54,732 bases of DNA from a virus (lineage: Duplodnaviria; Caudoviricetes): positions 1 through 54,732 of IMG/VR virus record IMGVR_UViG_3300025450_000037; one strand, given 5' to 3'. Shown here piece after piece: positions 42,610 through 54,732 of the stretch (position 1 is the first letter of the stretch; each line of letters opens with the position of its first letter). Made by a program: the position numbers and the translations under genes. The notes below the pieces were generated by a model, which was not told the DNA's origin, ran no database searches, and worked only from the letters and a program-made list of their open reading frames with translations.

Positions 42610-43605
42610 TTAAAGATTTTTATATATTTCTTTTAATCTTTGAACAACTGGTTTTGTAACTTCAAGCCAATCGTACTCTTGATGTATTTCAAAAGCTTTT
42701 CTAAACGTTTCTTTTGCAACATTTTCATAATTATTTACACAGTTAATCATATTTGTTTTTAAACTTTCTTTATTTGGTTCATACATAAATCCAGGATGTA
42801 TATCTTGCCAAGGATTTGTAGAAAGATTTGTTTCAATTACAAAAGGAACATATTTTTTATAATCTGCCCAATCAACTGTGCTTATTACTGGCATTCCAGT
42901 TGCTAAAGCTTCTAAAGGTTGAAAACCAAAACCCTCTCCCCAGCTAGGGTAAACAAAAACATCCGACAAAGAATATAAATCAATCATTTGTTGATCAGTA
43001 AAAAAAACATCTATACAAACAATGTTGTCATACAAAGCTGACGGTGAAGACCAATACCCCCATTTATCTTTAACTTTAACATTATTCATTCTAGAAGCTT
43101 TCATTATCAATCTATATTTAGGATCATTACCAAACAATTCTATAAATGCTTCAGTTAGCATCTGTGCATCTTTTCTGGCAAAAGGCTCACCTATATGTAA
43201 AAATGTAAATGGATCATGAGCAGATTTTCTTTTTTTGGGAATAAATCTTTCATCAATGCCATGTTTATAATAAAAAACAGGTTTATCTGGAAAATGATGT
43301 TTAAAAATATTTGCTACCCATGGAGATGTGCCCCAAATTTCATCTGCTTCTTCAAAATTTTTAATTTGATCTTTTGTTAAACCAGTTGATTCCCAAGCAG
43401 AGTAAGCAATCTTGTAAGCATTTTTATTTTTAAATTTATGGCTCCATGGATCTGCCCATGAAATTTCAATATCTGGATTATCAATTTCAAAACCACAATT
43501 TACACCAAGTTTATTAAAAGATTTATATATCATTTGAGCTGCTTGACCATATCCAGCATTTTTAGACATATATCGCATTGCGTCACCAGTAAAGGAAATT
43601 TTCAC
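42610..43605 (-). CDS. GT4-family (GT-B) glycosyltransferase
   Basis: RKD, DVFVYPSWGEGFGFQPLEALATGMPVI. Confidence 0.92.
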   Translation of the reverse strand: MKISFTGDAMRYMSKNAGYGQAAQMIYKSFNKLGVNCGFEIDNPDIEISWADPWSHKFKNKNAYKIAYSAWESTGLTKDQIKNFEEADEIWGTSPWVANIFKHHFPDKPVFYYKHGIDERFIPKKRKSAHDPFTFLHIGEPFARKDAQMLTEAFIELFGNDPKYRLIMKASRMNNVKVKDKWGYWSSPSALYDNIVCIDVFFTDQQMIDLYSLSDVFVYPSWGEGFGFQPLEALATGMPVISTVDWADYKKYVPFVIETNLSTNPWQDIHPGFMYEPNKESLKTNMINCVNNYENVAKETFRKAFEIHQEYDWLEVTKPVVQRLKEIYKNL

Positions 43606-43635
43606 GCTTAATTAGGCTCCAAACTTGTTTTTCTA

Positions 43636-43653
43636 ATTGTATCATGATACGAT
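43636..43653. promoter_or_regulatory. Back-to-back divergent extended -10 promoters at the strand switch
   Basis: Near-palindrome attgtatca|tgatacgat reads TGATACAAT on minus and TGATACGAT on plus. Confidence 0.6.
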
Positions 43654-43687
43654 TGTGTTTACTACTCTTTCCTCAAGGAGGTTCAAA

Positions 43688-44371
43688 ATGAACAATGAGA
43701 ACAAAACAAGGATAAGAACAACGTGGACAATGGTGTGTGTGATGATTCTCACATTATTTTTTGGAGTAAATTCCGAAGCCCACGCTTTAACAGCAAAAAC
43801 TATCGTGTATAATAAAAATATATTATATATTAATAAATATATTAATTTAGTTAATATTAAAAATATTATTAATATAGATATATTAAATAATAATAAAAGA
43901 AATGCAAGCAATACAGTTTATTTTATTAATGATCTGTCCACTGGCAAAACTTTTGAAATGCCCGCTTATAGCAAAATGCTAAAATTAAATCAAAGAGTAG
44001 ATCCAAGGGTAATAATATCAAGACTTTCCAATGCAATTCTTTCTCAAGAGACTGGGGGAGTTGGTGCATATTATAGAAAGTCTTATTCCAGCAGTGCATG
44101 TGGAGCTTTCCAATACATGTCTACATCATGGAATAACTTTATGGGATACAAAAATGCTTGTGATGCACCAGAATGGGTACAGGATGAACGTATGATTGGC
44201 GAACTAAAATCGTCTTATGCGCTGTACCATGACTGGAGAAAAGCTGTAGCAGCACATTTGTGCCCATCAAGAGCAGGCAATATGGCAACCTGGTTCAAGC
44301 CAGTTTCAGGGAATCCTACTGTCTACCAATATGTCACATCTGTATTTCAGAAGGCAAACATAGCATACTGA
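43688..44371 (+). CDS. Secreted lytic transglycosylase-like (lysozyme-fold) protein
   Basis: Signal peptide ending AHA; AILSQETGG (catalytic Glu), SACGAFQYM..W and APEWVQD. AAGGAGG RBS before ATG 43688. Confidence 0.8.
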   Translation: MNNENKTRIRTTWTMVCVMILTLFFGVNSEAHALTAKTIVYNKNILYINKYINLVNIKNIINIDILNNNKRNASNTVYFINDLSTGKTFEMPAYSKMLKLNQRVDPRVIISRLSNAILSQETGGVGAYYRKSYSSSACGAFQYMSTSWNNFMGYKNACDAPEWVQDERMIGELKSSYALYHDWRKAVAAHLCPSRAGNMATWFKPVSGNPTVYQYVTSVFQKANIAY

Positions 44372-44601
44372 TGAAAATTCAAGTATTCTCTCAGTATTAC
44401 AACTTAGCGCAGGCGGGCAGGGTAAAACCTCTCGCCTGTCCTAATCATAAATCAGATTACACATTTAGCGATGTTATATATTGGCTTGTGCACAAAAGTG
44501 TAGAAGACGATATCGTGCTATACTGTACAGCATGTGGGTACGAGCAAATTGCAGGACTACAGCTATATGAAAATATTTTAAAGGAGATCAGAAATGCCTA
44601 G
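44371..44601 (+). CDS. Small Zn-ribbon-like protein
   Basis: CPNH...CTAC; ATG overlaps the upstream stop. Confidence 0.6.
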   Translation: MKIQVFSQYYNLAQAGRVKPLACPNHKSDYTFSDVIYWLVHKSVEDDIVLYCTACGYEQIAGLQLYENILKEIRNA

Positions 44602-45067
44602 TGTTGGCGATTATTTTGTAGTAAGAACAAATGGCTGGGCAGGCTGGCTAATAAGATTTGGTACTGGTTCAAAGTGGAACCATGCTGGAATCTATATCGG
44701 CGATGGCAAAATTGTAGAAGCAAGACCAGTAGGGGTCACTATAAGTGATTTTTCAAAATATGACGGGATGCCGATACTCTGGAATACTAAAGTTGATAAT
44801 GTTTTGCCTGAAGTTGGACAACATATTGCAAATAGGTCAAAACAGTTTGTTGGAGATAAATATGGGTTTTGGTCAATTGTAAACATTGCCCTTAAAATTC
44901 TATTTCTTGGCTGGTTTCCAAATATGCGACGTGCTGAAAACGAAAATAGCGTAATTTGCTCTCAACTTGTAGCTTGGGCATACTCAGTAGGTGGAATTAA
45001 AGTTTCAAATAAACAACATGCTCTTGTTACACCCAAAATTCTTGCAAATCGCTTGACGGAAAAGTGA
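44594..45067 (+). CDS. Permuted papain-like amidase (YaeF/YiiX, C92-like)
   Basis: WNHAGIYIG precedes ICSQLVAWAY (His before Cys). Confidence 0.8.
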   Translation: MPSVGDYFVVRTNGWAGWLIRFGTGSKWNHAGIYIGDGKIVEARPVGVTISDFSKYDGMPILWNTKVDNVLPEVGQHIANRSKQFVGDKYGFWSIVNIALKILFLGWFPNMRRAENENSVICSQLVAWAYSVGGIKVSNKQHALVTPKILANRLTEK

Positions 45068-45081
45068 GTCGGAAGTAGGAA

Positions 45082-45597
45082 ATGGACCTTTTGCCTATTG
45101 TAAACAATCGCTCATGTGGCGAATGTACAAAATGCTGTGAAGGTCATCTTAGGGGCGACATCAATCTGTCGGATGGTCGTAAATCCTGGATTGGTCAAGA
45201 AAAAGACGGCACTTTGCACCCATGTGGGTTCTTAAATCAAGGCGTTGGATGTGGGGCTTATGAAAATAGGCCTACAATCCCCTGCAAGGTCTTTAAATGC
45301 GACTGGCTAACCAATTCCGATATGCCAGAGTCGTTCAAGCCTAGCAACTCTGGAGCTATTTTCTCCACTCGCACTGTAAAAGGTCAAACATATACAAAAA
45401 TTATTGAGGCGGGACGAAAGTTAGACTCAGAAGTTTTGTCTTGGGCGATAGAATACTACCTTGCAAGAGGTGAAAACTTCTCTTGGCGTGTTTTAGACAA
45501 CATTTTTTGGCTTGGAGATGAAGAATTTAACAAGATGATGAATGAAGACTATCCATTATTGTCAGAAACAAATGCAAATGGCGAAAATAATCACTGA
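45082..45597 (+). CDS. YkgJ-like cysteine-cluster (Fe-S/Zn) protein
   Basis: CGECTKCC...CGFL...CGAYENRP..CKVFKC. Confidence 0.7.
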   Translation: MDLLPIVNNRSCGECTKCCEGHLRGDINLSDGRKSWIGQEKDGTLHPCGFLNQGVGCGAYENRPTIPCKVFKCDWLTNSDMPESFKPSNSGAIFSTRTVKGQTYTKIIEAGRKLDSEVLSWAIEYYLARGENFSWRVLDNIFWLGDEEFNKMMNEDYPLLSETNANGENNH

Positions 45598-45835
45598 ACG
45601 AGCGTACATTGAGCCGTTCGGGGAGGATGAACAGGAAAATTTTGCCATTTTGCTTCATATTAAGCAGGGAAATGATCATCATTACGCTGGAAAGGTCGAA
45701 TTAGACCGTAATATTCCATGGATTTATTTCGAAAATACGCCTGATGGCCATTTAGAGATCAATAATTCGGCGGGTATGGAGAATAATAAATGGGATCACA
45801 TAACATATTACATATTGGATAATAAAGATGAATAG
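45578..45835 (+). CDS. Hypothetical protein
   Basis: ORF overlapping both neighbours. Confidence 0.55.
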   Translation: MAKIITERAYIEPFGEDEQENFAILLHIKQGNDHHYAGKVELDRNIPWIYFENTPDGHLEINNSAGMENNKWDHITYYILDNKDE

Positions 45836-46574
45836 TTTTGCCTCAATGTGGTATGGATCACATTTAAATAATCTAGAAAAACTTACCATTAAGTCTTATT
45901 TGGCTAACGGATATGATTTTACCCTTTATGCTTACGATAAAAGCCTAGAAGTGCCATCTGGAGCGATATTAAGAGATGCCAGAGAGATAATGCCAGAAGA
46001 TATGATATACGGCGAGAAAGGATATTGGCAACCATTTTCGGATATGTTCCGATATAAGATGCTAATGGATACAGATCATATATGGGTAGATATGGATGCT
46101 ATATGTCTAAGAGATGATTGGAACTTTGGTGATTATATCCTAGGATTAGAAGAAGATCATGAGTATATATCCAAAGTAAACAATGCTGTTTTAAAACTCC
46201 CGCCCAATAGTGAAGCTTTAAAATACATGTATGAGTATTGCTTAAATGTAGACAAATCTGCAATTAATTGGAATCCTTCATATCCTGGACCACCTATTGA
46301 ATTAGGTCCTATATTGCTAGAGCAAGCAGTTGAAAAATTTAATTTGAAAAAGTATGTTCAGTCAGAGAAAACTTTTTACCCTATAAATTGGCAATATGCG
46401 CATATGCATTTTCATCCCGACCCTAAAGTAGCAGAAAAAATAAAAATCATATCAAAAGATAGTTATACTGCTCACATCACTTCTTCTGTAGCATCTACTA
46501 GAGTTAATAAAAATTTTTTTCCAAAAGATAGCTATATCGGATATCTTGCTAAAAAATATGGAATGGAGGTATAA
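45828..46574 (+). CDS. DXD-type glycosyltransferase (GT32/alpha-1,4-glycosyltransferase-like)
   Basis: FSDMFRYKML...WVDMDAICL...GPILL...FYPINW. Confidence 0.8.
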   Translation: MNSFASMWYGSHLNNLEKLTIKSYLANGYDFTLYAYDKSLEVPSGAILRDAREIMPEDMIYGEKGYWQPFSDMFRYKMLMDTDHIWVDMDAICLRDDWNFGDYILGLEEDHEYISKVNNAVLKLPPNSEALKYMYEYCLNVDKSAINWNPSYPGPPIELGPILLEQAVEKFNLKKYVQSEKTFYPINWQYAHMHFHPDPKVAEKIKIISKDSYTAHITSSVASTRVNKNFFPKDSYIGYLAKKYGMEV

Positions 46575-46578
46575 ACAT

Positions 46579-46821
46579 ATGAGTGAATTAAAAGAACCTA
46601 ATGTAGATCTAAATGAAAACATAAGAGATTTATTAGGAGCTATATTTATCCAAGAACAGCGTAATTATGATATGCTCATGATTATTGCTGATAAGTTAGG
46701 TGCAGATGCCAATAAATTATTAAAGATGCATGAACTTGGAGAAGTTCTAGCTCCCGCCCCATCTTTTAAATTTGAAGATGAAGCAAATCCTGATAAAGAT
46801 CTAATTCACGACTTTGAATAA
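46579..46821 (+). CDS. Hypothetical protein
   Basis: GGAGG RBS before ATG 46579. Confidence 0.6.
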   Translation: MSELKEPNVDLNENIRDLLGAIFIQEQRNYDMLMIIADKLGADANKLLKMHELGEVLAPAPSFKFEDEANPDKDLIHDFE

Positions 46822-46843
46822 ATAATGATATAATTATATTATC

Positions 46844-47002
46844 ATGAGCCCAAGATACAATAGACGCAATATGCAATCTCCTTACTTTGAGAAAAAACCA
46901 TATGGTCATGATAATCCAGGTGCAAAAGGTGCTGAATGGGAAGCTGCTATTGAAGCTTTTTTCTCCCGCCTAATTTCTAAAGTTAAATTCTGGTCTAAAT
47001 AA
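46844..47002 (+). CDS. 52-aa hypothetical protein
   Basis: MSPRYNRRNMQSPYFEKK...; TGATATAAT at 46826-46834; followed by a hairpin. Confidence 0.55.
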   Translation: MSPRYNRRNMQSPYFEKKPYGHDNPGAKGAEWEAAIEAFFSRLISKVKFWSK

Positions 47003-47010
47003 ACCATTTA

Positions 47011-47040
47011 AATGATCCATAATTTTAGTTATGGATCATT
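47011..47040 (+). terminator. Inverted repeat terminator closing the middle block
   Basis: aatgatccataa-N6-ttatggatcatt followed by T-rich sequence. Confidence 0.65.
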
Positions 47041-47316
47041 CTATTTTCTCAGGAATTTCTCAGTTTTAAATTTGATCAAAATGTTAATGTATATTTTTGA
47101 TGTATGATACATTTTTCTGGCACAAAAAGCAAAAAATAATAGTCCGCCCGAAATGTCCAATTTGTACACATAAATGACCAGTCACACTTAAAAATATTTT
47201 TTAATTTGTCCTATTTTGTCCGTTTTGCGACTTGATTTTTCCAAAATAGTATGCTAGTATTCTACTATAAGAGTTAATAAAGGTTATTAACACTAAAAAG
47301 AAAGTGAGTCTAACTA

Positions 47317-47556
47317 ATGACTACATATAATGAATACTATAATGAAATCCGTACCGATATTGCTAAAGAGTTTGGCTTAGAGTTTGGTGGATTCGCTCCA
47401 TCTCCCCGCCCTGCTTTATCAGTAAATCAGGCTCTATATCTTAACGCTAAGTATCAGAGCGACCCTCTTGCTCTTGAGCCTAACCAAAAGGCGGTTGAAA
47501 TCGCCCGCCGTTATGGTAGCCTAGTCAAGATGTGGCGTAACTCACAGACACGCTAA
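47317..47556 (+). CDS. Early-region hypothetical protein
   Basis: 79 aa; AAGAAAGTGAG leader. Confidence 0.65.
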   Translation: MTTYNEYYNEIRTDIAKEFGLEFGGFAPSPRPALSVNQALYLNAKYQSDPLALEPNQKAVEIARRYGSLVKMWRNSQTR

Positions 47557-47575
47557 CGGCGTGTCGTGTTGATTT

Positions 47576-47597
47576 TGTCAGTGCTATCTGATAGACT
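47576..47597 (+). promoter_or_regulatory. RecA-NDp/PafBC-type promoter 1
   Basis: TGTCAGTG-ctatctga-TAGACT. Confidence 0.8.
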
Positions 47598-47693
47598 ACC
47601 GTCATAACAATTAAATAAAGATAAATCCCGTGAGCCCTACACAGTAGGCAAATAATCGGGCAAGGAAAAGAACTACTAAAGAAAGGTGACAAA

Positions 47694-47840
47694 ATGTCAT
47701 ACTCATTTGATAACACTAACACAGATCGTTGGTCTGAATTGGCTGATGGATATCAATCAATGCTTGATGAATTAAATAATGAAGAATTAGAATCAGTATT
47801 TGTACCAGTTGATTCGTTTGATGAATTGGAGATTTTATAA
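47694..47840 (+). CDS. 48-aa acidic protein
   Basis: MSYSFDNTNTDRWSELADGYQSMLDELNNEELESVFVPVDSFDELEIL; GAAAGGTGA RBS. Confidence 0.65.
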   Translation: MSYSFDNTNTDRWSELADGYQSMLDELNNEELESVFVPVDSFDELEIL

Positions 47841-47957
47841 ATGATTATCCTAACCTATATTGTAAGAGGGCTAATGCTACTTGCACTCCCGCCCCTATGT
47901 ATGCTAATGTATGCTATTGTAAAAGACGTAAAGACTTGGGGGCAAAATGAAAACTAA
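47841..47957 (+). CDS. 38-aa membrane peptide
   Basis: MIILTYIVRGLMLLALPPLCMLMYAIVKD...; adjacent to both neighbours. Confidence 0.5.
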   Translation: MIILTYIVRGLMLLALPPLCMLMYAIVKDVKTWGQNEN

Positions 47958-48108
47958 GATAATCGTATTAGGTATAGCGTTAGCACTTATGCCAAATATG
48001 GCACAGGCTAAATCTAATAGTCATAAGTGGCATTACACTATGACCTACCACCGCCCGACCCACGTTCGGTGTCCATATGCTGGGTGTCGCTCAGACCTTC
48101 AACCCTAA
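47947..48108 (+). CDS. 53-aa putative secreted peptide
   Basis: MKTKIIVLGIALALMPNMAQA signal peptide, then a His-rich tail with CPYAGC. Confidence 0.5.
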   Translation: MKTKIIVLGIALALMPNMAQAKSNSHKWHYTMTYHRPTHVRCPYAGCRSDLQP

Positions 48109-48112
48109 CAAA

Positions 48113-48134
48113 TGTCAGTGGTCTATGGTAGACT
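48113..48134 (+). promoter_or_regulatory. RecA-NDp/PafBC-type promoter 2
   Basis: TGTCAGTG-gtctatgg-TAGACT. Confidence 0.8.
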
Positions 48135-48168
48135 ACTACTAACAACAACAAGAAAAGGATAAAAAATA

Positions 48169-48333
48169 ATGACAACAGAAAATCGTACATATCAGGTAGG
48201 CGATCTTTTTACTACACAACGTAGCAAGGTAACAGGCACGATCAAGGAGATCGTAAATGTTAAGCCTAATCAGTCTCGTGTTAAGTTGTCAGTAGACGGC
48301 AAGGATCGCTGGACTACTGTAACAATCAAGTAA
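48169..48333 (+). CDS. 54-aa small beta-barrel-like protein, paralog A
   Basis: MTTENRTYQVGDLFTTQRSKVTGTI...; GAAAAGGA RBS. Confidence 0.75.
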   Translation: MTTENRTYQVGDLFTTQRSKVTGTIKEIVNVKPNQSRVKLSVDGKDRWTTVTIK

Positions 48334-48419
48334 GTTTGGCAAATCGCCAAATATCCTGAGCAAGATATAAAAAGGCTCAACACAAAACCCAACAAAGAAA
48401 AAAAGAAAAGGAAAACTAA

Positions 48420-48590
48420 ATGTCACTCAACGGATATACATATCAAGTCGGAGATCTATTCACAACCTCAACAACAGGTGTAACAGGTCGCATTAACTCT
48501 TTCGCACCAATTAGCAAGACTGTAACTCGTGTTGGTCTTACTTTAGCAAATGGTCAAAAGCGTTTTGCAATGGTAAAAACAGCAAAGTAA
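48420..48590 (+). CDS. 56-aa small beta-barrel-like protein, paralog B
   Basis: MSLNGYTYQVGDLFTTSTTGVTGRI...; GAAAAGGA RBS. Confidence 0.75.
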   Translation: MSLNGYTYQVGDLFTTSTTGVTGRINSFAPISKTVTRVGLTLANGQKRFAMVKTAK

Positions 48591-48669
48591 TGATATAATA
48601 AATCTTGGCGGGACTGCCCACTAATACTGACACTCCCGCCATCTACTAATAAAAAGGATAGAAAATAAA

Positions 48670-48843
48670 ATGATGACAAGAAAAGACTATGTTGCAACTG
48701 CTGAAATTTTAAACTCTTATGGTTCAGAAATGAAATTAGAAGTGTTAGAAGATTTAGTAAATGATTTCATCGAAATGTTTGCAGCAGATAACGAGCGTTT
48801 TGATTCTGACAGGTTCTGGGACGAATGTTTCAAAAATCTATAA
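48670..48843 (+). CDS. 57-aa hypothetical protein
   Basis: MMTRKDYVATAEIL...FAADNERFDSDRF; AAAGGA RBS. Confidence 0.7.
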   Translation: MMTRKDYVATAEILNSYGSEMKLEVLEDLVNDFIEMFAADNERFDSDRFWDECFKNL

Positions 48844-48956
48844 TGGAAAAAGTTAAACGCATACAAGAGCTTAGGCGTAGCAATGCTGCTACGCCTCTGC
48901 AAAATAAAAAGAAATATAATCGCAAAACAAAATATAAAAACAAATTAGTTGAATAA
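48843..48956 (+). CDS. 37-aa basic peptide, paralog 1
   Basis: MEKVKRIQELRRSNAATPLQNKKKYNRKTKYKNKLVE; TAATG coupling. Confidence 0.7.
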   Translation: MEKVKRIQELRRSNAATPLQNKKKYNRKTKYKNKLVE

Positions 48957-48978
48957 TCAACTAATTTTTGTCGATGCG

Positions 48979-49011
48979 TTATCCACAGGTTTATCCACAG
49001 ATTGTGGATTA
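48979..49011. promoter_or_regulatory. DnaA box cluster
   Basis: TTATCCACA at 48979 and 48991; inverted one-mismatch copy TGTGGATTA at 49003. Confidence 0.75.
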
Positions 49012-49237
49012 TAATTAACCTTAAGTTCACCTAAAATATACGGCGTGTCGCTTGATTTTTCCGTTTAAGTGTGATAAACTTCCAGTTATAAAATTAAATA
49101 ATGCTATAAAGCGTGTGGCTTATATCACACCGCTAAGCGTCTCAAAGGTTGAGACTACTAGCCAGTATACTTGATAGTAGCGAAAAAGTATGTTAAACTA
49201 GCGATAGTTAAACAGTTAAAAAAGAAAGGTGGTCAAA

Positions 49238-49426
49238 ATGACTACACTAACAAATATAGGCTTAGCCTTAAATATCCCTGCTACCTTAGAAAATCGTATT
49301 ATTCACGATTTTAACAATGGGGGATGTACCTCATCTTATGGCTTATCTACGCCTCAGCGTATAGCCTTATTAAAAATCCTCTTGGGTGGTAATGCCCCTA
49401 AGTGTGAGTGTATCCACTGCCTCTAA
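49238..49426 (+). CDS. Hypothetical protein
   Basis: GAAAGGTGG RBS before ATG 49238; C-terminal CECIHC. Confidence 0.6.
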   Translation: MTTLTNIGLALNIPATLENRIIHDFNNGGCTSSYGLSTPQRIALLKILLGGNAPKCECIHCL

Positions 49427-49448
49427 TGTCAGTGGTCAATGCTATAAT
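49427..49448 (+). promoter_or_regulatory. RecA-NDp/PafBC-type promoter 3
   Basis: TGTCAGTG-gtcaatgc-TATAAT. Confidence 0.8.
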
Positions 49449-49482
49449 TACCAATTAACAAGAAAGAAAGAAGGTAGCAAAT

Positions 49483-49707
49483 ATGCTAATCTCAGAAGCC
49501 TTAGAAGGCAAATATGTAAAGTCCTCAAAAGGACAAGGCATAATCCAATATGCAGATTTCCGAAAGGATATGCACCACTCTACACCAGAGGGTTATCTTG
49601 CTTATGCTTGCAAGGTTCGCCCTACGTATAACCCCGAAGTGCATAAGTTTATTCCAGAAGATTTCTGGACAACAATTTATGTCGGATTGGATAGTGAATT
49701 ACTATGA
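49483..49707 (+). CDS. Hypothetical protein
   Basis: 74 aa; GAAGGT RBS. Confidence 0.65.
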   Translation: MLISEALEGKYVKSSKGQGIIQYADFRKDMHHSTPEGYLAYACKVRPTYNPEVHKFIPEDFWTTIYVGLDSELL

Positions 49708-49910
49708 CAATTAAAATTGGTGGGCTAGGGCAGGAGATTTCTGCCTATTGCCCAGTATGCTCACAAAAGATGACCCATATGTGTATTGCTACACTTGGAA
49801 CGGGTCGCACAATTCGCTATGCTTGGGAATGTCAGCCTTGCGAATTATCTCTTAAATCCGATAAAGATGGCAATGCTCATCTTCTAACAGAAATGGCTTA
49901 CTATGTCTGA
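49704..49910 (+). CDS. Small Zn-ribbon protein
   Basis: CPVC...CQPC; ATGA overlap. Confidence 0.6.
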   Translation: MTIKIGGLGQEISAYCPVCSQKMTHMCIATLGTGRTIRYAWECQPCELSLKSDKDGNAHLLTEMAYYV

Positions 49911-49951
49911 TGCAATATTTATATGCGATGATTGCGATACTCTTGCAACAG

Positions 49952-49973
49952 TGTCAGTGGGGTCTGATACAAT
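49952..49973 (+). promoter_or_regulatory. RecA-NDp/PafBC-type promoter 4
   Basis: TGTCAGTG-gggtctga-TACAAT. Confidence 0.8.
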
Positions 49974-50018
49974 AACTATAAATCCCTGCAAATGTGTAAC
50001 ACTAGATTGGAATAACTA

Positions 50019-50225
50019 ATGTATAAAATTACAACAACCTATGACGAAAATCCCGTCCCACACTCTATTCACTCTTATGCTGATGCACTTGATGCGTTTG
50101 ACTCGTTTGGTCGTTGCACCGATTGGGGATTTGCAGATGAATATGCAACCTACAATTTAACTTTACCTGATGGAAAAATGTACACAAAGATTTTTTATCG
50201 TAGCGGAAAAGTTGGTGGAAAGTAA
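50019..50225 (+). CDS. Hypothetical protein
   Basis: 68-aa ORF downstream of promoter 4. Confidence 0.6.
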   Translation: MYKITTTYDENPVPHSIHSYADALDAFDSFGRCTDWGFADEYATYNLTLPDGKMYTKIFYRSGKVGGK

Positions 50226-50297
50226 TGGTAACAACAATTCACCTTGGTGGAATAGAATCAGAATGTGAGAAGTGTCGTGAAATTGCGGGAGAAAATA

Positions 50298-50399
50298 ATG
50301 AATAAAGTAAATCGTGTTCAAGAGTTGCGGAGATCAAATGCTGCAACTCCAATTCGTAACAAGAAAAAATATACACGCAAAATAAAATATAAAAAATAA
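50298..50399 (+). CDS. 33-aa basic peptide, paralog 2
   Basis: MNKVNRVQELRRSNAATPIRNKKKYTRKIKYKK; GGGAG RBS. Confidence 0.7.
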   Translation: MNKVNRVQELRRSNAATPIRNKKKYTRKIKYKK

Positions 50400-50514
50400 A
50401 TTTGACAATTAGCTTATTTTGGGTCGACCCGCCTGACTGGTCATTGTCAATACGACACGCCGTTTACGGCGTGTGATTTTAATCTCATAAATACTGGCGG
50501 GTACAAGTGGATAA

Positions 50515-50536
50515 TGTCAGTGGGTTCTGGTATACT
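50515..50536 (+). promoter_or_regulatory. RecA-NDp/PafBC-type promoter 5
   Basis: TGTCAGTG-ggttctgg-TATACT. Confidence 0.8.
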
Positions 50537-50567
50537 TCCAACTATCAAGAAAAGAAAGGGGCATTAA

Positions 50568-50795
50568 ATGTCTACTATTGCCACATATTGCAAAGATTGC
50601 AATAAGCGTTTATCTGATATTTCAGTATATGACGCTCCCTATACTTCCGATTCTACTTGCTGGGAGTGTATCTTCAAGTCCTGCGATTTTTGCTATGGTC
50701 AAGGAATTACTGGCTGGGTATCTCCAGATGGTGATTTTGATTTTGATTATTGCGAATGCAACCCACTATGCCTAACACTAGAGGAGGTCAAATAA
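50568..50795 (+). CDS. Cys-rich small protein
   Basis: CKDC, CWEC, CDFC and CEC motifs. Confidence 0.6.
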   Translation: MSTIATYCKDCNKRLSDISVYDAPYTSDSTCWECIFKSCDFCYGQGITGWVSPDGDFDFDYCECNPLCLTLEEVK

Positions 50796-50986
50796 TGACT
50801 AATGAAACTATTTTTGAAGTCGCTTGCCTATACTATGAAGTATGCGGTACAAGCGAAGTATTCTACTCTGAAGAAGAGTATGATATTTATGGGGATGATT
50901 ATGTATGCCCTGAATGTCAAGACTCTGTTGCAGAGTTTTACTCTGATTCCTTCCCGCTTTATCTTGAATATGATGAGGGGGAGTAA
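50795..50986 (+). CDS. Acidic Zn-ribbon-like small protein
   Basis: GGAGG RBS; C....C and CPEC; very D/E-rich. Confidence 0.55.
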   Translation: MTNETIFEVACLYYEVCGTSEVFYSEEEYDIYGDDYVCPECQDSVAEFYSDSFPLYLEYDEGE

Positions 50987-51064
50987 TGTCTGATAAGTCT
51001 GCTCAAGATCTGTTTAATGAAATGGATACCCTCTGGGATAATTTCAAGAAAGCCACTTGGCAAA

Positions 51065-51086
51065 TGTCAGTGGTACCTGCTACAAT
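51065..51086 (+). promoter_or_regulatory. RecA-NDp/PafBC-type promoter 6
   Basis: TGTCAGTG-gtacctgc-TACAAT. Confidence 0.8.
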
Positions 51087-51122
51087 AACATCCTCAACCC
51101 AACCAAAGAATGGAAACTAACA

Positions 51123-51596
51123 ATGAACACATCCCTAACCCGTGGCGAAGCCAAAGATACAATTGACTTCGCAATTGAACAATTTATCAACGAGATTGAA
51201 GTCTCTGACGGTATGCTATTAACGATTACCTATGCCGTAAATAATGACCTGCAGATTCGTGATTACTTCCTTGGTCTCCCGTCCGATTATGGTATGCAGG
51301 TATGCGTTGATTTTGTCAATTATCTTTCACGAGTAACTAATGCACGAGAAGGATATGCATATGACACAATTTCTGCGATGTATCATATTGAACAAGGCAA
51401 CACAGACTTGGCTAAGTCTCTGCTAGAAATTGCAGAAAAAAATAATCCTGATTATAATCTGATGAAACTTGCAAAGAGAATTCTTTCAGCAGGTTGGCCA
51501 GGTTCTGCATTAACTAGAATGCGTAATGAATTGCATTCTTCAGTTGTGGATACTATCACCGAAGAGCCAAATATTTTAATTGGGGAGGTGGCGTAA
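51123..51596 (+). CDS. Helical hypothetical protein
   Basis: Start moved to ATG 51123, downstream of promoter 6. Confidence 0.65.
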   Translation: MNTSLTRGEAKDTIDFAIEQFINEIEVSDGMLLTITYAVNNDLQIRDYFLGLPSDYGMQVCVDFVNYLSRVTNAREGYAYDTISAMYHIEQGNTDLAKSLLEIAEKNNPDYNLMKLAKRILSAGWPGSALTRMRNELHSSVVDTITEEPNILIGEVA

Positions 51597-51811
51597 TGGC
51601 TAAGCATCCACCAGTCGGGAATGCCAAATGGCATTCCGTGTTTGCAGATGACAATTGCAAAGTTTGGCAAGATGGCAATGATGATATTTTTTTCAAGGTT
51701 GCGATCAAGGGTCAACGTGTAAAATATTTTTACAATGAAACTGCACACAGTGACGTTGCACGTTACTGTTCAGACAATTTAGGAATTCGTTATTGGTCCG
51801 TGTTAGATTAA
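51596..51811 (+). CDS. Hypothetical protein
   Basis: GGAGGT RBS; TAATG coupling. Confidence 0.65.
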   Translation: MAKHPPVGNAKWHSVFADDNCKVWQDGNDDIFFKVAIKGQRVKYFYNETAHSDVARYCSDNLGIRYWSVLD

Positions 51812-52089
51812 TTTAAATGGGGTGGGTAATGACTGCAATGGCTTATATTTATGTATACGGATTAATATGGGCCATTGCTGCATTCTTAATTAAAGCTTGG
51901 GAATTATTAAAAGATAATTAGCGTGTTGCATTTGACAAATGCATTTTTTTGGGTCGACACGCTCGGGCGTGTCGTACACAGGTTGTGGATAAAGTTTGAC
52001 TAGTCAATTACGAGGTGATGTTTATCACATTCAAAAAATCGGACATTACGGACAAATGTTTGTTTATCTTGCTTTACGGAATAGACAAG

Positions 52090-52111
52090 TGTCAGTGCCA
52101 TCTGCTAGAAT
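52090..52111 (+). promoter_or_regulatory. RecA-NDp/PafBC-type promoter 7
   Basis: TGTCAGTG-ccatctgc-TAGAAT. Confidence 0.8.
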
Positions 52112-52141
52112 AGGCATACATTAACAAGAAAGAAGGAAAAT

Positions 52142-53179
52142 ATGACTAACCCTATGTCACAAGTTCACCGCTCAGAAGTTGAGTCTGGTGAAGTATCTCT
52201 CGCTGTATCTACCCGCACTAACCCTGCTTGGCATAGTTTTGCTAACAAGGTCTTCACAAAAGATGAAGAAGTAACAACCGCACAAATGCTAGAGGGTGCT
52301 AAGTTGTCTAATTGGAATGTTCAATTAGAGTCTGTGTCTGATTTGCTTGCAGATAATTATACTACTGTTAGCGAGAATTTTCTCGTTACACGTGATAACC
52401 CTTATACAGCAGGACAAAAAGATGTTCTCTCAGTTGTAGGCTCACGCTATAAGACAGTTCAGAATGAAGATTTATTCTCATTCGCAGATAACTTACACGA
52501 TGGCAATTCAGATGTCTATTGGGAAAGTGCAGGTTCTCTCAAGAATGGTCGTGTTGTATTCGGCACAATGTCAATTCCCCGCACTATGGTTCTTGACCCT
52601 AATGGTGCTAACGATCAGACTAATCTTTATCTCGTAGTCTACACTTCACACGATGGTTCTGTTGCTGTTCAGTCTGCAATTACCCCTGTTCGTGTTATGT
52701 GTCAGAATACACTTAATTTCGCTATGCGTAAGGCTAAGCAATCTTTCAAGATTCGCCATACTCAGACAGTAGATGGAAAGATCGCTGCTGCTCGTGAGGC
52801 TTTAGGCTTGACATTCTCCTATATGGACGAATTCGAAAAGCAAGCACAAGAGTTGTTCTCTCGTGAAGTTACCAATGCAAAGTTTTCTGAGATCATTAAC
52901 AAATTATATGTTAAGCCAGAGGCAGACGTTAAGGGTGCTGTAAAGAAGTGGGAAAACAAGGTTCTGCTCATAGATGAGTTGTACCATAACTCTCCTACTA
53001 ATGCTAATATCAAGGGTACAGCGTGGGGTGTTGTAAATGCACTTACCGAACGCCTTGATTATTATCGCACAGCCCGCAAGGGTGGCGATTCGCTAATGGC
53101 AGGTGCAAGTGGATTTGACCCTGTTGTTACAGCAGAAAAAAATAAAATTGTTAAGCAGGTTCTTGCACTTACCGCTTAA
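52142..53179 (+). CDS. DUF932-like phage/plasmid protein
   Basis: PAWH, Y..VQN, ESAGSLKNGRVVF, SHDGS, TPVRVMCQNTL and GTAWGVVNALTE motifs. Confidence 0.8.
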   Translation: MTNPMSQVHRSEVESGEVSLAVSTRTNPAWHSFANKVFTKDEEVTTAQMLEGAKLSNWNVQLESVSDLLADNYTTVSENFLVTRDNPYTAGQKDVLSVVGSRYKTVQNEDLFSFADNLHDGNSDVYWESAGSLKNGRVVFGTMSIPRTMVLDPNGANDQTNLYLVVYTSHDGSVAVQSAITPVRVMCQNTLNFAMRKAKQSFKIRHTQTVDGKIAAAREALGLTFSYMDEFEKQAQELFSREVTNAKFSEIINKLYVKPEADVKGAVKKWENKVLLIDELYHNSPTNANIKGTAWGVVNALTERLDYYRTARKGGDSLMAGASGFDPVVTAEKNKIVKQVLALTA

Positions 53180-53185
53180 TAAATC

Positions 53186-53207
53186 GTGAGGGGCGAAAGC
53201 CCCTCAC
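53186..53207 (+). other. GC-rich GAAA-tetraloop hairpin just before the tRNA
   Basis: gtgaggggc-gaaa-gcccctcac, a perfect 9-bp stem with no U-tract. Confidence 0.7.
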
Positions 53208-53213
53208 CATCAC

Positions 53214-53287
53214 GGTCTGTTAGATTAATTGGTTAAATCGCTACCCTGTCACGGTAGAGATCACGGGTTCAAGTCCCGTACAGATCG
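53214..53287 (+). tRNA. tRNA-Asp (GTC)
   Basis: Acceptor GGTCTGT/ACAGATC, D-arm, anticodon arm CTACC-CTGTCAC-GGTAG and T-arm ACGGG-TTCAAGT-CCCGT. Discriminator is G; CCA is not encoded (CAA follows). Confidence 0.92.
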
Positions 53288-53411
53288 CAAAAGTTTGACT
53301 GATCATCACGGCGTGTCGGGTTGACAAAGCTGCAAAAATGGGTCGACACGCTCGGGCGTGTCGGGTGTGATAATAAACACAGTTACGATATACGGCGTGT
53401 CGGATGGAAAA

Positions 53412-53433
53412 TGTCAGTGGGTTACGATATAAT
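53412..53433 (+). promoter_or_regulatory. RecA-NDp/PafBC-type promoter 8
   Basis: TGTCAGTG-ggttacga-TATAAT. Confidence 0.8.
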
Positions 53434-53457
53434 AATGCCCTGATGAAAGGAAAACTA

Positions 53458-54072
53458 ATGAACTGGTTTAAATGGGATTACGTTTGCCCATATTGCGATG
53501 CACATATTGAAATGACTATTAAACCTAATGGTCATCCACATAGCGAGATTTGCCCAAAATGCTTTGAGCGTTTAACACTAATGTCAGTGGTAGATGTTAC
53601 AATTAGTCCTATAACTACTAAGAAAGAAGATGAAATGGAAACTCTTACTAATCCCGCCGATATTTACAACCCAAATGCTTTGGTTACTTACAAGAAGATT
53701 GTAAATGGTCAGGCTGAGTATGTAACTATTAAAACAGTAGAACTTGATTGGGATATGAACCGAGCAAGACAAGATGCAAAGCAGGTTCTCAATGACTATG
53801 AGAAGGCAGTTGCACTTGAGGATATTATCAAGGAAAACTATCTTGAGTCTGGGGATCAGGGAACACTCCTCAAGATTGCAGAACTCTTTAATATTGCATT
53901 AACTAAAGATATTGAGTTTGTTGCAACTATCGAAATTGCAGGAACAGTTACAGTTGATATGACAGATGAAGATGCTTTGCAAACTTTGCTAGAAAATAGC
54001 ATAAATGTGTCTTCCTATGATGGTGATTTAGATGTGTCTGATTATGTTCTTATTAACTATGAGGAGAGATAA
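53458..54072 (+). CDS. Hypothetical protein with N-terminal Zn ribbon and a possible internal start at 53635
   Basis: GAAAGGA RBS before ATG 53458; CPYC..CPKC; in-frame ATG 53635 lies downstream of promoter 9. Confidence 0.65.
   Translation: MNWFKWDYVCPYCDAHIEMTIKPNGHPHSEICPKCFERLTLMSVVDVTISPITTKKEDEMETLTNPADIYNPNALVTYKKIVNGQAEYVTIKTVELDWDMNRARQDAKQVLNDYEKAVALEDIIKENYLESGDQGTLLKIAELFNIALTKDIEFVATIEIAGTVTVDMTDEDALQTLLENSINVSSYDGDLDVSDYVLINYEER
53582..53603 (+). promoter_or_regulatory. RecA-NDp/PafBC-type promoter 9 (intragenic)
   Basis: TGTCAGTG-gtagatgt-TACAAT. Confidence 0.75.
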
Positions 54073-54338
54073 TGGTAATCACTTTACAAGTCCCGACCAA
54101 AGCCCAAATGGGCTATGGTTTGGGCAAGTGTATTCAGTATGGCGTTGAATACAATGTCTTAAATGATTTACAAGTTGAATTAACTTCTGCTGATGAAATC
54201 AAACTAACTAAAATGGCAGTTGCCTTTCAAGGCAAGTTGCTTGATGTAAAACAAACTGAATATGTGGCTGGGGATCTTCCAAAGTATGAAGTCCAGTATG
54301 CTAGAACTAATAGACCTATTCAGACACGCCGTAAATAG
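54072..54338 (+). CDS. Hypothetical protein
   Basis: GAGGAG RBS; TAATG coupling. Confidence 0.6.
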   Translation: MVITLQVPTKAQMGYGLGKCIQYGVEYNVLNDLQVELTSADEIKLTKMAVAFQGKLLDVKQTEYVAGDLPKYEVQYARTNRPIQTRRK

Positions 54339-54403
54339 ATTTGCCAAAGGCAACCTGCCTATGGTAGAATAACACCTCACCCAACAACAGAAAAGGAAAC
54401 AAA

Positions 54404-54732
54404 ATGGCTAGAGCAATCTCCGTTAAAGTAGCAACACCAAAAGTAATTGCTGCACTAGAAGCAAAGTTAGCATCACTAGAGTCTACACTTGCAACATCAC
54501 AAGCAAACGAGGAAGCATACCAAACTGCTTGGAAACAATATCAGACACAGTTACAGAACTATTGTGTTGCAAATATCTCGCAAGCAACTAACTTCCGTGT
54601 ATCAAACCGCTCATATAATAATCTAGTGAACATTGACTATGATGTTCCAACTAACTTGGCTGGATTCCCAGTAGAGCCTAAGCGTGATTTTGAGGTAGTG
54701 TATGAGCATAACGTTACTTCTGCAAAAGAAGA
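54404..54732 (+). CDS. Hypothetical protein, truncated by the window end
   Basis: MARAISVKVATPKVIAALEAKL...; GAAAAGGA RBS; upstream TTGCCA...TGGTAGAAT promoter. Confidence 0.65.
   Translation, partial: MARAISVKVATPKVIAALEAKLASLESTLATSQANEEAYQTAWKQYQTQLQNYCVANISQATNFRVSNRSYNNLVNIDYDVPTNLAGFPVEPKRDFEVVYEHNVTSAKE

Follow-up and report, generated by a model that had tools for sequence, protein, structure and literature searches.

A block of small genes carries nine copies of one element

IMG/VR record IMGVR_UViG_3300025450_000037 (Duplodnaviria; Caudoviricetes) is a 54,732-nt stretch of viral DNA, estimated to be 51% complete, which we analysed at its full length and refer to as the window. Its G+C content is about 37%, its structural genes (portal, protease and capsid) lie on the minus strand, and it also encodes a class II ribonucleotide reductase and a glycosyltransferase. 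Small genes on the plus strand begin at about 43.6 kb, and a block of about 25 of them (47317..54732, plus strand) contains nine copies of a promoter-like element, TGTCAGTG-N8-TAnnnT. The element has the sequence and spacing of the promoter that is read in Actinobacteria by PafBC, an activator switched on by single-stranded DNA (ssDNA), and here we investigate what it is, how it is conserved and what might read it.

The pattern TGTCAGTG-N8-TAnnnT matches the window at 47576, 48113, 49427, 49952, 50515, 51065, 52090, 53412 and 53582, always on the plus strand and within 47576-53603 (100 dinucleotide-preserving shuffles gave a mean of 0.07 matches and a maximum of 1). These are the nine sites that an earlier note on this DNA had listed, and each proved to be an exact match. 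The bare octamer TGTCAGTG turns up nowhere else in the 54,732 nt, whichever strand is read (1.91 expected), and therefore the structural region has none, as that note had also maintained. While a looser core, TGTCRG-N10-TAnnnT, recovered the identical nine sites (0.87 expected), allowing up to two mismatches added 14 sites for a total of 23, against 21.85 expected, meaning that the window holds no degenerate copies. Among the direct repeats returned by a blind repeat finder, the motif made up the top families (D1 and D3). When aligned, the nine copies read A(A/G)TGTCAGTG(G/C)-N4-TGnTAnAaT, i.e., an extended -10 plus an upstream box. The earlier claim that every copy lies upstream of a gene start stands for eight of the nine, in which a purine-rich Shine-Dalgarno sequence and an ATG follow 25-46 nt past the -10; it fails for the first copy, whose next start is 96 nt away. 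Three copies (49952, 51065 and 53582) lie inside reading frames. A generic sigma-70 scan of 43000-54732 found no enrichment (46 sites against 44.6 expected).

Conservation of the element across related phages

To place these sites in the context of related phages we collected 59 loci of at most 21 kb each (981,374 nt) around the DUF932 gene of the block; the set includes near-duplicates (L102-L104), and 545 distinct sites were left once identical ones were removed. A scan of the window and its relatives, as the earlier note had proposed, gave nine sites in the window's block and, across the 59 loci, 609 matches to TGTCRG-N10-TAnnnT on the gene strand against 5 on the other; for the exact octamer form (TGTCAGTG-N8-TAnnnT) the figures were 259 and 0. 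Between 2 and 19 copies were present in each of 54 low-GC loci, and in five near-complete genomes the copies fell within one 7-9 kb stretch on one strand. The remaining five loci (L151-L155), with a G+C content of 49-50%, had no gene-strand TGTCRG copy. In place of the TGTCRG class, these five loci, where the DUF932 protein identity is 54-55%, had canonical TTGAC/TGnTAnAnT promoters, and ahead of one of these stands GCGTGTCG.

The element is conserved in both spacing and sequence. On the gene strand the core and the -10 were separated by 10 nt in 609 cases, by 9 nt in 7 and by 11 nt in 1, and 259 of the 261 gene-strand copies of TGTCAGTG had a -10 in register at N8. Among the 545 distinct sites, positions T1, G2, T3, C4 and G6 were fixed, position 5 was A (0.84) or G (0.16), and positions 7-8 were free (TG, AC, TC, TA or CC). 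The octamer variants comprised TGTCAGTG (259), TGTCAGAC (119), TGTCGGTG (83), TGTCAGTC (65), TGTCAGTA (23) and TGTCAGCC (21). About 90% of the related sites had the TG of an extended -10, and a pyrimidine followed by A (0.63), i.e., a start-site signature, appeared in the logo 7 nt past the -10. A Shine-Dalgarno sequence and a start codon followed within 60 nt (median 31) at 431 of 544 distinct sites, compared with 97 of 544 random positions. Upstream of 48 distinct DUF932 orthologues TGTC was invariant and the -10 conserved while the flanks drifted, and a few of these regions read TGTCACCC or TGTCGTAC at the element. We also observed paired TTATCCACAG/CTGTGGATAA boxes upstream of DUF932 in four distant relatives (L142, L144, L145 and L149).

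From these alignments we consider it beyond reasonable doubt that the TGTCRG-N10-TAnnnT sites are promoters of a single class, which would be active and would start transcription at the predicted position. Judging from gene content and layout, the block is probably expressed early.

Layout of the promoters and the genes behind them

We numbered the nine predicted promoters P1 to P9 in the order in which they lie on the plus strand. P1 (47576..47597) reads TGTCAGTG-N8-TAGACT and precedes the next Shine-Dalgarno sequence and ATG, at 47694, by a 96-nt leader; the small open reading frames (ORFs) behind it are 47694-47840, 47841-47957 and 47947-48108. As TTGATT stands 17 nt ahead of its -10, P1 is a hybrid with a -35-like hexamer. 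P2 is intergenic (48113..48134), with an ATG at 48169, 35 nt past the -10, and would drive 48169-48333, 48420-48590, 48670-48843 and 48843-48956. The first two of these genes are adjacent paralogues of 54-56 aa with a common YQVGDLFTT-like start. Another duplication concerns 48840-48940 and 50295-50395, a 101-nt direct repeat of 72% identity (family D2) from which basic peptides of 33-37 aa are encoded.

P3 (49427..49448) starts right behind the stop codon of ORF 49238-49426 and has an ATG at 49483, 35 nt past its -10, followed by ORFs 49483-49707, 49704-49910 and 49903-50019. P4 (49952..49973) lies within the last of these; its ATG is at 50019, 46 nt past the -10, and behind it come ORF 50019-50225 and then small ORFs up to 50399. 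P5 (50515..50536) is intergenic, is preceded by a terminator-like hairpin (50455-50474), and has its ATG at 50568, 32 nt past the -10, ahead of ORFs 50568-50795, 50802-50986 and 50986-51120. P6 (51065..51086) is again nested, within ORF 50986-51120, with an ATG at 51123, 37 nt past the -10, and ORFs 51123-51596, 51596-51811 and 51817-51921 behind it; the first of these has a weak match to DUF4192 (E 0.0016), below the cut-off.

P7 (52090..52111) would drive the DUF932 gene (52142-53179), whose ATG at 52142 is 31 nt past the -10, and a terminator-like hairpin (53186-53207) lies 3' of that gene. Directly 3' of this hairpin, and still within the promoter block, we observed a tRNA-Asp (GTC) at 53214-53288. 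P8 (53412..53433) precedes an ATG at 53458, 25 nt past its -10, and ORF 53458-54072, which encodes a 204-aa protein of no family. Within this ORF lies P9 (53582..53603), 31 nt past whose -10 there is an in-frame ATG (53635) with a Shine-Dalgarno sequence; ORF 54072-54338 comes next. The arrangement of P9 and the in-frame ATG suggests that a full-length and an N-terminally shortened isoform of one 204-aa protein may be made. A complete relative (G001) shows this layout too, with a motif at 63222 inside ORF 63083-63724.

The gene content of the block thus consists of small ORFans, DUF932 and a weak DUF4192-like protein, with no repair genes. None of 20 small ORFs of the block reached the Pfam cut-off, and a search of 10 of its small ORFs against PHROGs returned two weak matches of unknown function.

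Two further kinds of element were observed in the same region. The first is a second repeat, ACGGCGTGTCG, with 12 matches at up to one mismatch (1.46 expected), 11 of which fall in 47.5-54.4 kb; copies were located at 47556-47566, 49040-49050, 50453-50474, 51950-51974, 53308-53318, 53339-53363 and 53392-53402. Some of these copies pair as hairpins or terminator-like stems, and an identical 25-nt stretch is found at 51950 and 53339. In the relatives (918,732 nt) we counted 196 exact copies of GGCGTGTCG on the gene strand, as opposed to 88 on its complement. Of the gene-strand copies 176 are distinct; the TTGA of a canonical -35/extended -10 promoter comes 0-4 nt after 87 of these, and a TGTCRG promoter within 60 nt after 33. 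The second is a set of DnaA-box-like nonamers, three of which lie within 33 nt at 48979-49011 (two exact copies of TTATCCACA and one inverted copy with 1 mismatch), with another exact TTATCCACA at 51984-51992, upstream of the DUF932 promoter. Window-wide, DnaA boxes are at chance (20 against 20.3 expected), but the paired boxes noted above are likewise found ahead of DUF932 in distant relatives, and the arrangement may be an origin or a DnaA-regulated site.

The phage lineage and its probable host

A search with the portal protein identified 452 related viral contigs. G001, a complete relative of 108,356 nt that is collinear with the window, is organised into a minus-strand arm (0.5-52.4 kb), a plus-strand island (52.4-67.7 kb), of which the promoter block at 47317..54732 is the counterpart, and a second minus-strand arm (67.8-108 kb). 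This last arm, which lies beyond the end of the window (L165-L167), encodes DnaE, a DnaG-type primase, a divergent RecA-like protein, WhiB, GroES and Hsp20, together with glutathione peroxidase, thioredoxin and sugar-nucleotide epimerases. As neither an integrase nor a resolvase was found in any of six records, the phage looks virulent.

WhiB, reported to be found only in Actinobacteriota and to mark actinophages (PMC10202952), exceeded the Pfam cut-off of 23.6 bits in three of five relatives (G001, G002 and G003; 36.8-38.8 bits); neither the window (51% complete) nor G005 (66% complete) gave a match. Among cultured phages the closest are members of the family Stanwilliamsviridae that infect Streptomyces, with a portal 56% identical over 93% and a DUF932 protein 53% identical. 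Because relatives carry WhiB and the closest cultured kin infect Streptomyces, the host is very probably an actinobacterium, which agrees with the earlier note's view of the element as an actinobacterial promoter type. Given that the phage has a G+C content of about 37%, this host would not be of the Mycobacterium or Streptomyces type; it is likely a low-GC actinobacterium, perhaps one with a streamlined genome.

A profile search of genome contigs with the phage WhiB alignment also recovered contigs of this lineage (L094-L097, corresponding to G010-G013; one contig of 109,918 nt) in metagenome-assembled genomes labelled Bacteroidetes, Omnitrophota, cyanobacterium and Bacteroidia. Since each of these assemblies has 1-2 WhiB matches, the recruiting contig included, we took them as binning errors and not as hosts.

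The element coincides with the PafBC promoter

The promoter to which we compared the phage element is known as the RecA-NDp promoter, whose motif has also been written as tTGTCRgtg-8nt-TAnnnT. The in vivo consensus of the PafBC promoter is tGTCgg(N10)tA(N3)T, in which the 3' part is the SigA -10 and the helix-turn-helix of PafB contacts positions -23 to -28 (the "-26 element"), where it reads the GTC triplet; such promoters have no -35 and the holoenzyme alone does not recognise them (PMC8635444). PafBC becomes active when ssDNA binds to its WYL domains (PMC11804915). The promoter is known in Streptomyces (PMC5087735) and, more generally, reaches beyond mycobacteria to other Actinobacteria (PMC8223512).

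The phage element equals this consensus in sequence and spacing, which upholds the identification made in the earlier note. If the start is taken to lie 7 nt past the -10, TGTCRG spans -28 to -23. The core, the wobble, the free flanking positions, the spacing and the predicted position all coincide. The match is to PafBC specifically, because SiwR, a second mycobacterial WYL activator, reads GGA at -26 and not GTC (PMC10693628). It seems to us improbable that a 6-nt core, an A/G wobble and a base-exact spacing would all match the motif of a host-group activator by chance.

No published phage promoters of this class were found in the literature on PafBC with phage and on RecA-NDp, covered mostly as titles and abstracts; actinobacterial or prophage promoters with a bearing on novelty may be tabulated in the motif and regulon supplements to the PafBC papers. 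Among cultivable phages we observed one perfect site, TGTCAGTGG..TACAAT, in Mycobacterium phage Marvin (L178; JF704100.1, 36843-36864), with a -10 that ends 7 nt ahead of the annotated gp62 start codon (36871). The expected transcript would be leaderless and would come from a PafBC-type promoter in a phage of M. smegmatis that can be cultivated, although for a single site a chance match is possible.

Search for a phage-encoded reader

We then considered which protein might read the element, and whether the phage itself could supply it. The WYL domain (PF13280) was found in none of five records and none of five near-complete genomes, HTH_PafC (PF19187) in none of six records, Sigma70_r2 in none of five near-complete genomes, and AsiA (PF09010) in none of six records at E <= 1, MotA not being searched for. 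The earlier note's alternative suggestion, that the phage encodes a PafBC-like WYL activator of its own, thus finds no support in the WYL and HTH_PafC results. HTH_11 gave sub-threshold matches only, in two of six records (14.8 and 12 bits; cut-off 25) and outside the promoter block. The HTH_11-like ORFs are small (62-66 aa) and lie at G008:C1:67754-67816 (minus strand) and G009:C1:76111-76173 (plus strand), on the strand opposite to the block. A Pfam scan of G001, defined as 99 ORFs of at least 60 aa at 49.4-108 kb (leaving out three ORFs at locus borders and those below 49.4 kb), had no sigma, HTH or WYL family among the matches listed (25 of the 36 families in the second half).

A candidate for a small regulator is the product of ORF 49238-49426, a 62-aa protein in which H23 and C56/C58/C61 are invariant and which is conserved across 18 distinct relatives; a highly conserved canonical promoter and leader lie upstream of the ORF. 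Its AlphaFold model (predicted local distance difference test score, pLDDT, of 79.4) has three helices and a Cys-rich tail, and no fold in the PDB matched it at E <= 0.001. The model of another protein of the block, encoded by ORF 47317-47556, was too poor for a fold search (pLDDT 59.5).

A host activator as the leading reading

The reading that we favour is that the promoters of the block depend on a PafBC of the host, and we regard the case for it as evenly balanced between right and wrong. The extended -10 (TGnTAnAAT) would be read by the primary sigma factor of the host, while TGTC(A/G)G, at exactly -28 to -23, would replace the -35 hexamer or, in roughly one in four related promoters, add to it. 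A PafBC-type WYL activator of the host would be switched on by ssDNA arising during infection, for instance through replication, host DNA breakdown or resection of the incoming genome's ends. Once activated, PafBC would insert itself between the -26 element and region 4 of sigma, a mode of action called "sigma adaptation", and so fire the promoters of the block, with the canonical -35/-10 promoters in the block giving PafBC-independent expression. We propose somewhat more tentatively, at a little short of even chances, the wider picture in which a widespread, uncultured, virulent phage lineage (about 105-112 kb) of low-GC actinobacteria has wired some 10-19 promoters to the ssDNA-activated PafBC of its host, such that the damage alarm, set off by infection as such, would act as ignition key or timer for the takeover genes.

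Several observations weigh against dependence on host PafBC. Specifically, 146 of 543 sites (27%) match TTGACA in at least 5 of 6 positions at 16-19 nt from the -10, compared with 21 of 540 random positions (4%), while PafBC promoters are defined as -35-less (PMC8635444). Because of this -35-like hexamer some of the promoters are hybrids that may fire without an activator, and since about 90% of sites carry the TG of an extended -10, the sites might do so more generally; four of the nine sites in the window are flagged by the generic sigma-70 scan. The two Streptomyces phages Jay2Jay and Wakanda have no match to TGTCRGTG-N8-TAnnnT and no motif cluster, and they seem to use canonical TTGAC/TGnTAGACT promoters; in 12 cultured actinophages the motif is at chance level (9 matches against 12 for a reversed-pattern control). 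As the motif is missing from the cultured relatives, the trait would be an innovation of the low-GC lineage, which a lineage-specific phage factor would also fit. Moreover, a phage would take a risk in tying its first-wave genes to an activator that does nothing until ssDNA appears, and a low-GC, perhaps streamlined, host may not possess pafBC. Finally, the genes downstream are phage ORFans and not the repair and stress genes typical of (though not defining for) a PafBC regulon.

Among the alternatives we first consider that the -26 element is read by a phage factor of no known family, either a small early protein or a virion protein, that bridges to the host sigma factor in the manner of T4 MotA/AsiA. 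Such a factor could be made first from the canonical -35/-10 promoters in the block, e.g., from the conserved promoter of ORF 49238-49426; nearly all small ORFs of the block are without a family, and the motif cluster is specific to the lineage and absent from cultured relatives on RecA-NDp hosts. The near-complete genomes, however, yielded no WYL, HTH_PafC, sigma-70 region 2 or AsiA and only the sub-threshold HTH_11 matches, the model of the 62-aa protein has no counterpart among PDB folds, and a coincidental match to the motif of a host-group activator would be improbable. A phage factor is, in our view, unlikely, if still a serious contender; it would require the identity with the PafBC motif to reflect convergence, or else mimicry by a protein that replaces PafBC.

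One could also suppose that the promoters are constitutive SigA promoters with an extended -10 (plus a weak -35), and that the TGTCRG in the spacer is an operator through which a phage or host repressor later shuts them off or keeps them silent. The extended -10 TG at about 90% of sites and the -35-like hexamer at 27% are in keeping with this, as is a location between -35 and -10, the classical place of an operator, and repressor sites that are asymmetric and orientation-specific have precedents in cluster A mycobacteriophages. Yet a repressor has no need of a register exact to a single base, whereas the spacing is N10 in 609 cases against 7 for N9 and 1 for N11, and the octamer nearly always comes with a -10 (259 of 261). 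In addition, 291 of 543 sites (54%) match TTGACA in 3 of 6 positions or fewer, which means that something must replace the -35, and the failure to find an integrase or a resolvase in six records leaves no sign of a lysogenic repressor circuit. We thus judge an operator improbable.

That the host polymerase reads the element directly, through an unusual or group-2 sigma factor or a spacer shape favouring the open complex, is very improbable, since no described sigma factor reads a -26 element by itself, the published holoenzyme needs PafBC at such promoters (PMC8635444) and the motif equals that of a known activator, even if the -10 is of primary-sigma type, the spacing is strict and the promoters of the host lineage are uncharacterised.

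Implications of dependence on host PafBC

All descriptions of PafBC and sigma adaptation to date concern chromosomal DNA-repair genes, in mycobacteria and their relatives. If the block promoters do depend on host PafBC, this phage would be the first virus found to exploit sigma adaptation, and its promoters would provide the first evidence that the PafBC pathway works in low-GC actinobacteria. The virus would borrow a stress activator of its host and bring no sigma factor or activator of its own, and any silencing of the phage would cost the host a working damage response. It would also follow that WYL sensors are tripped by infection in Actinobacteria. DNA damage such as that caused by UV is then predicted to modulate how these uncultured phages infect, an abundant group to judge from the 452 related contigs. 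The collection of more than 500 natural promoter variants amounts to a mutational map of what the -26 element tolerates.

Comparison with known systems

The closest counterparts are the PafBC promoters of Actinobacteria (PMC8635444 and PMC11804915), with which the phage element shares TGTC(R)G, the 10-nt gap to TAnnnT, an invariant GTC and free positions after the core; a consensus -35 is missing from most phage copies. The differences are that the phage has nine copies within 6 kb, ahead of ORFans rather than repair genes, that position 5 is mostly A in the phage and G in M. smegmatis, and that about 90% of phage sites have an extended -10 TG and about a quarter also a -35-like hexamer.

A comparison can also be made with the nearest cultured kin. 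The left-end (terminal-repeat) block of Stanwilliamsviridae (e.g., Jay2Jay), phages with the 56% identical portal, likewise contains small genes including DUF932, for which each record has matches in 2 places. By contrast, its promoters are canonical-looking (TTGAC-N17-TGnTAGACT) and the TGTCRG class is absent.

Another type of repeated phage site is the stoperator of cluster A mycobacteriophages, a short, asymmetric, orientation-specific repressor site that occurs in many copies scattered over the genome and is not tied to a -10. The phage element resembles it in being short and asymmetric and in occurring in many copies with one orientation relative to transcription. Unlike stoperators, it keeps one fixed distance to a -10 and is limited to a single block.

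The SiwR promoter of M. smegmatis is similar in that a WYL activator that senses ssDNA reads its -26 element; it differs in that the SiwR triplet is GGA whereas that of the phage is GTC, and in that SiwR controls one operon (PMC10693628).

Finally, the middle promoters of T4 (a MotA box at -30 plus a -10) also place an activator box where a -35 would be, in a fixed register with a good -10, and PafBC itself has been compared with the "sigma appropriation" of T4 MotA/AsiA (PMC8635444). In the phages studied here, by contrast, AsiA was not found in any of six genomes (a search that did not extend to MotA), and the box has a different sequence. Since this box differs from that of T4 and equals the site of a host activator, the activator is more likely to be supplied by the host.

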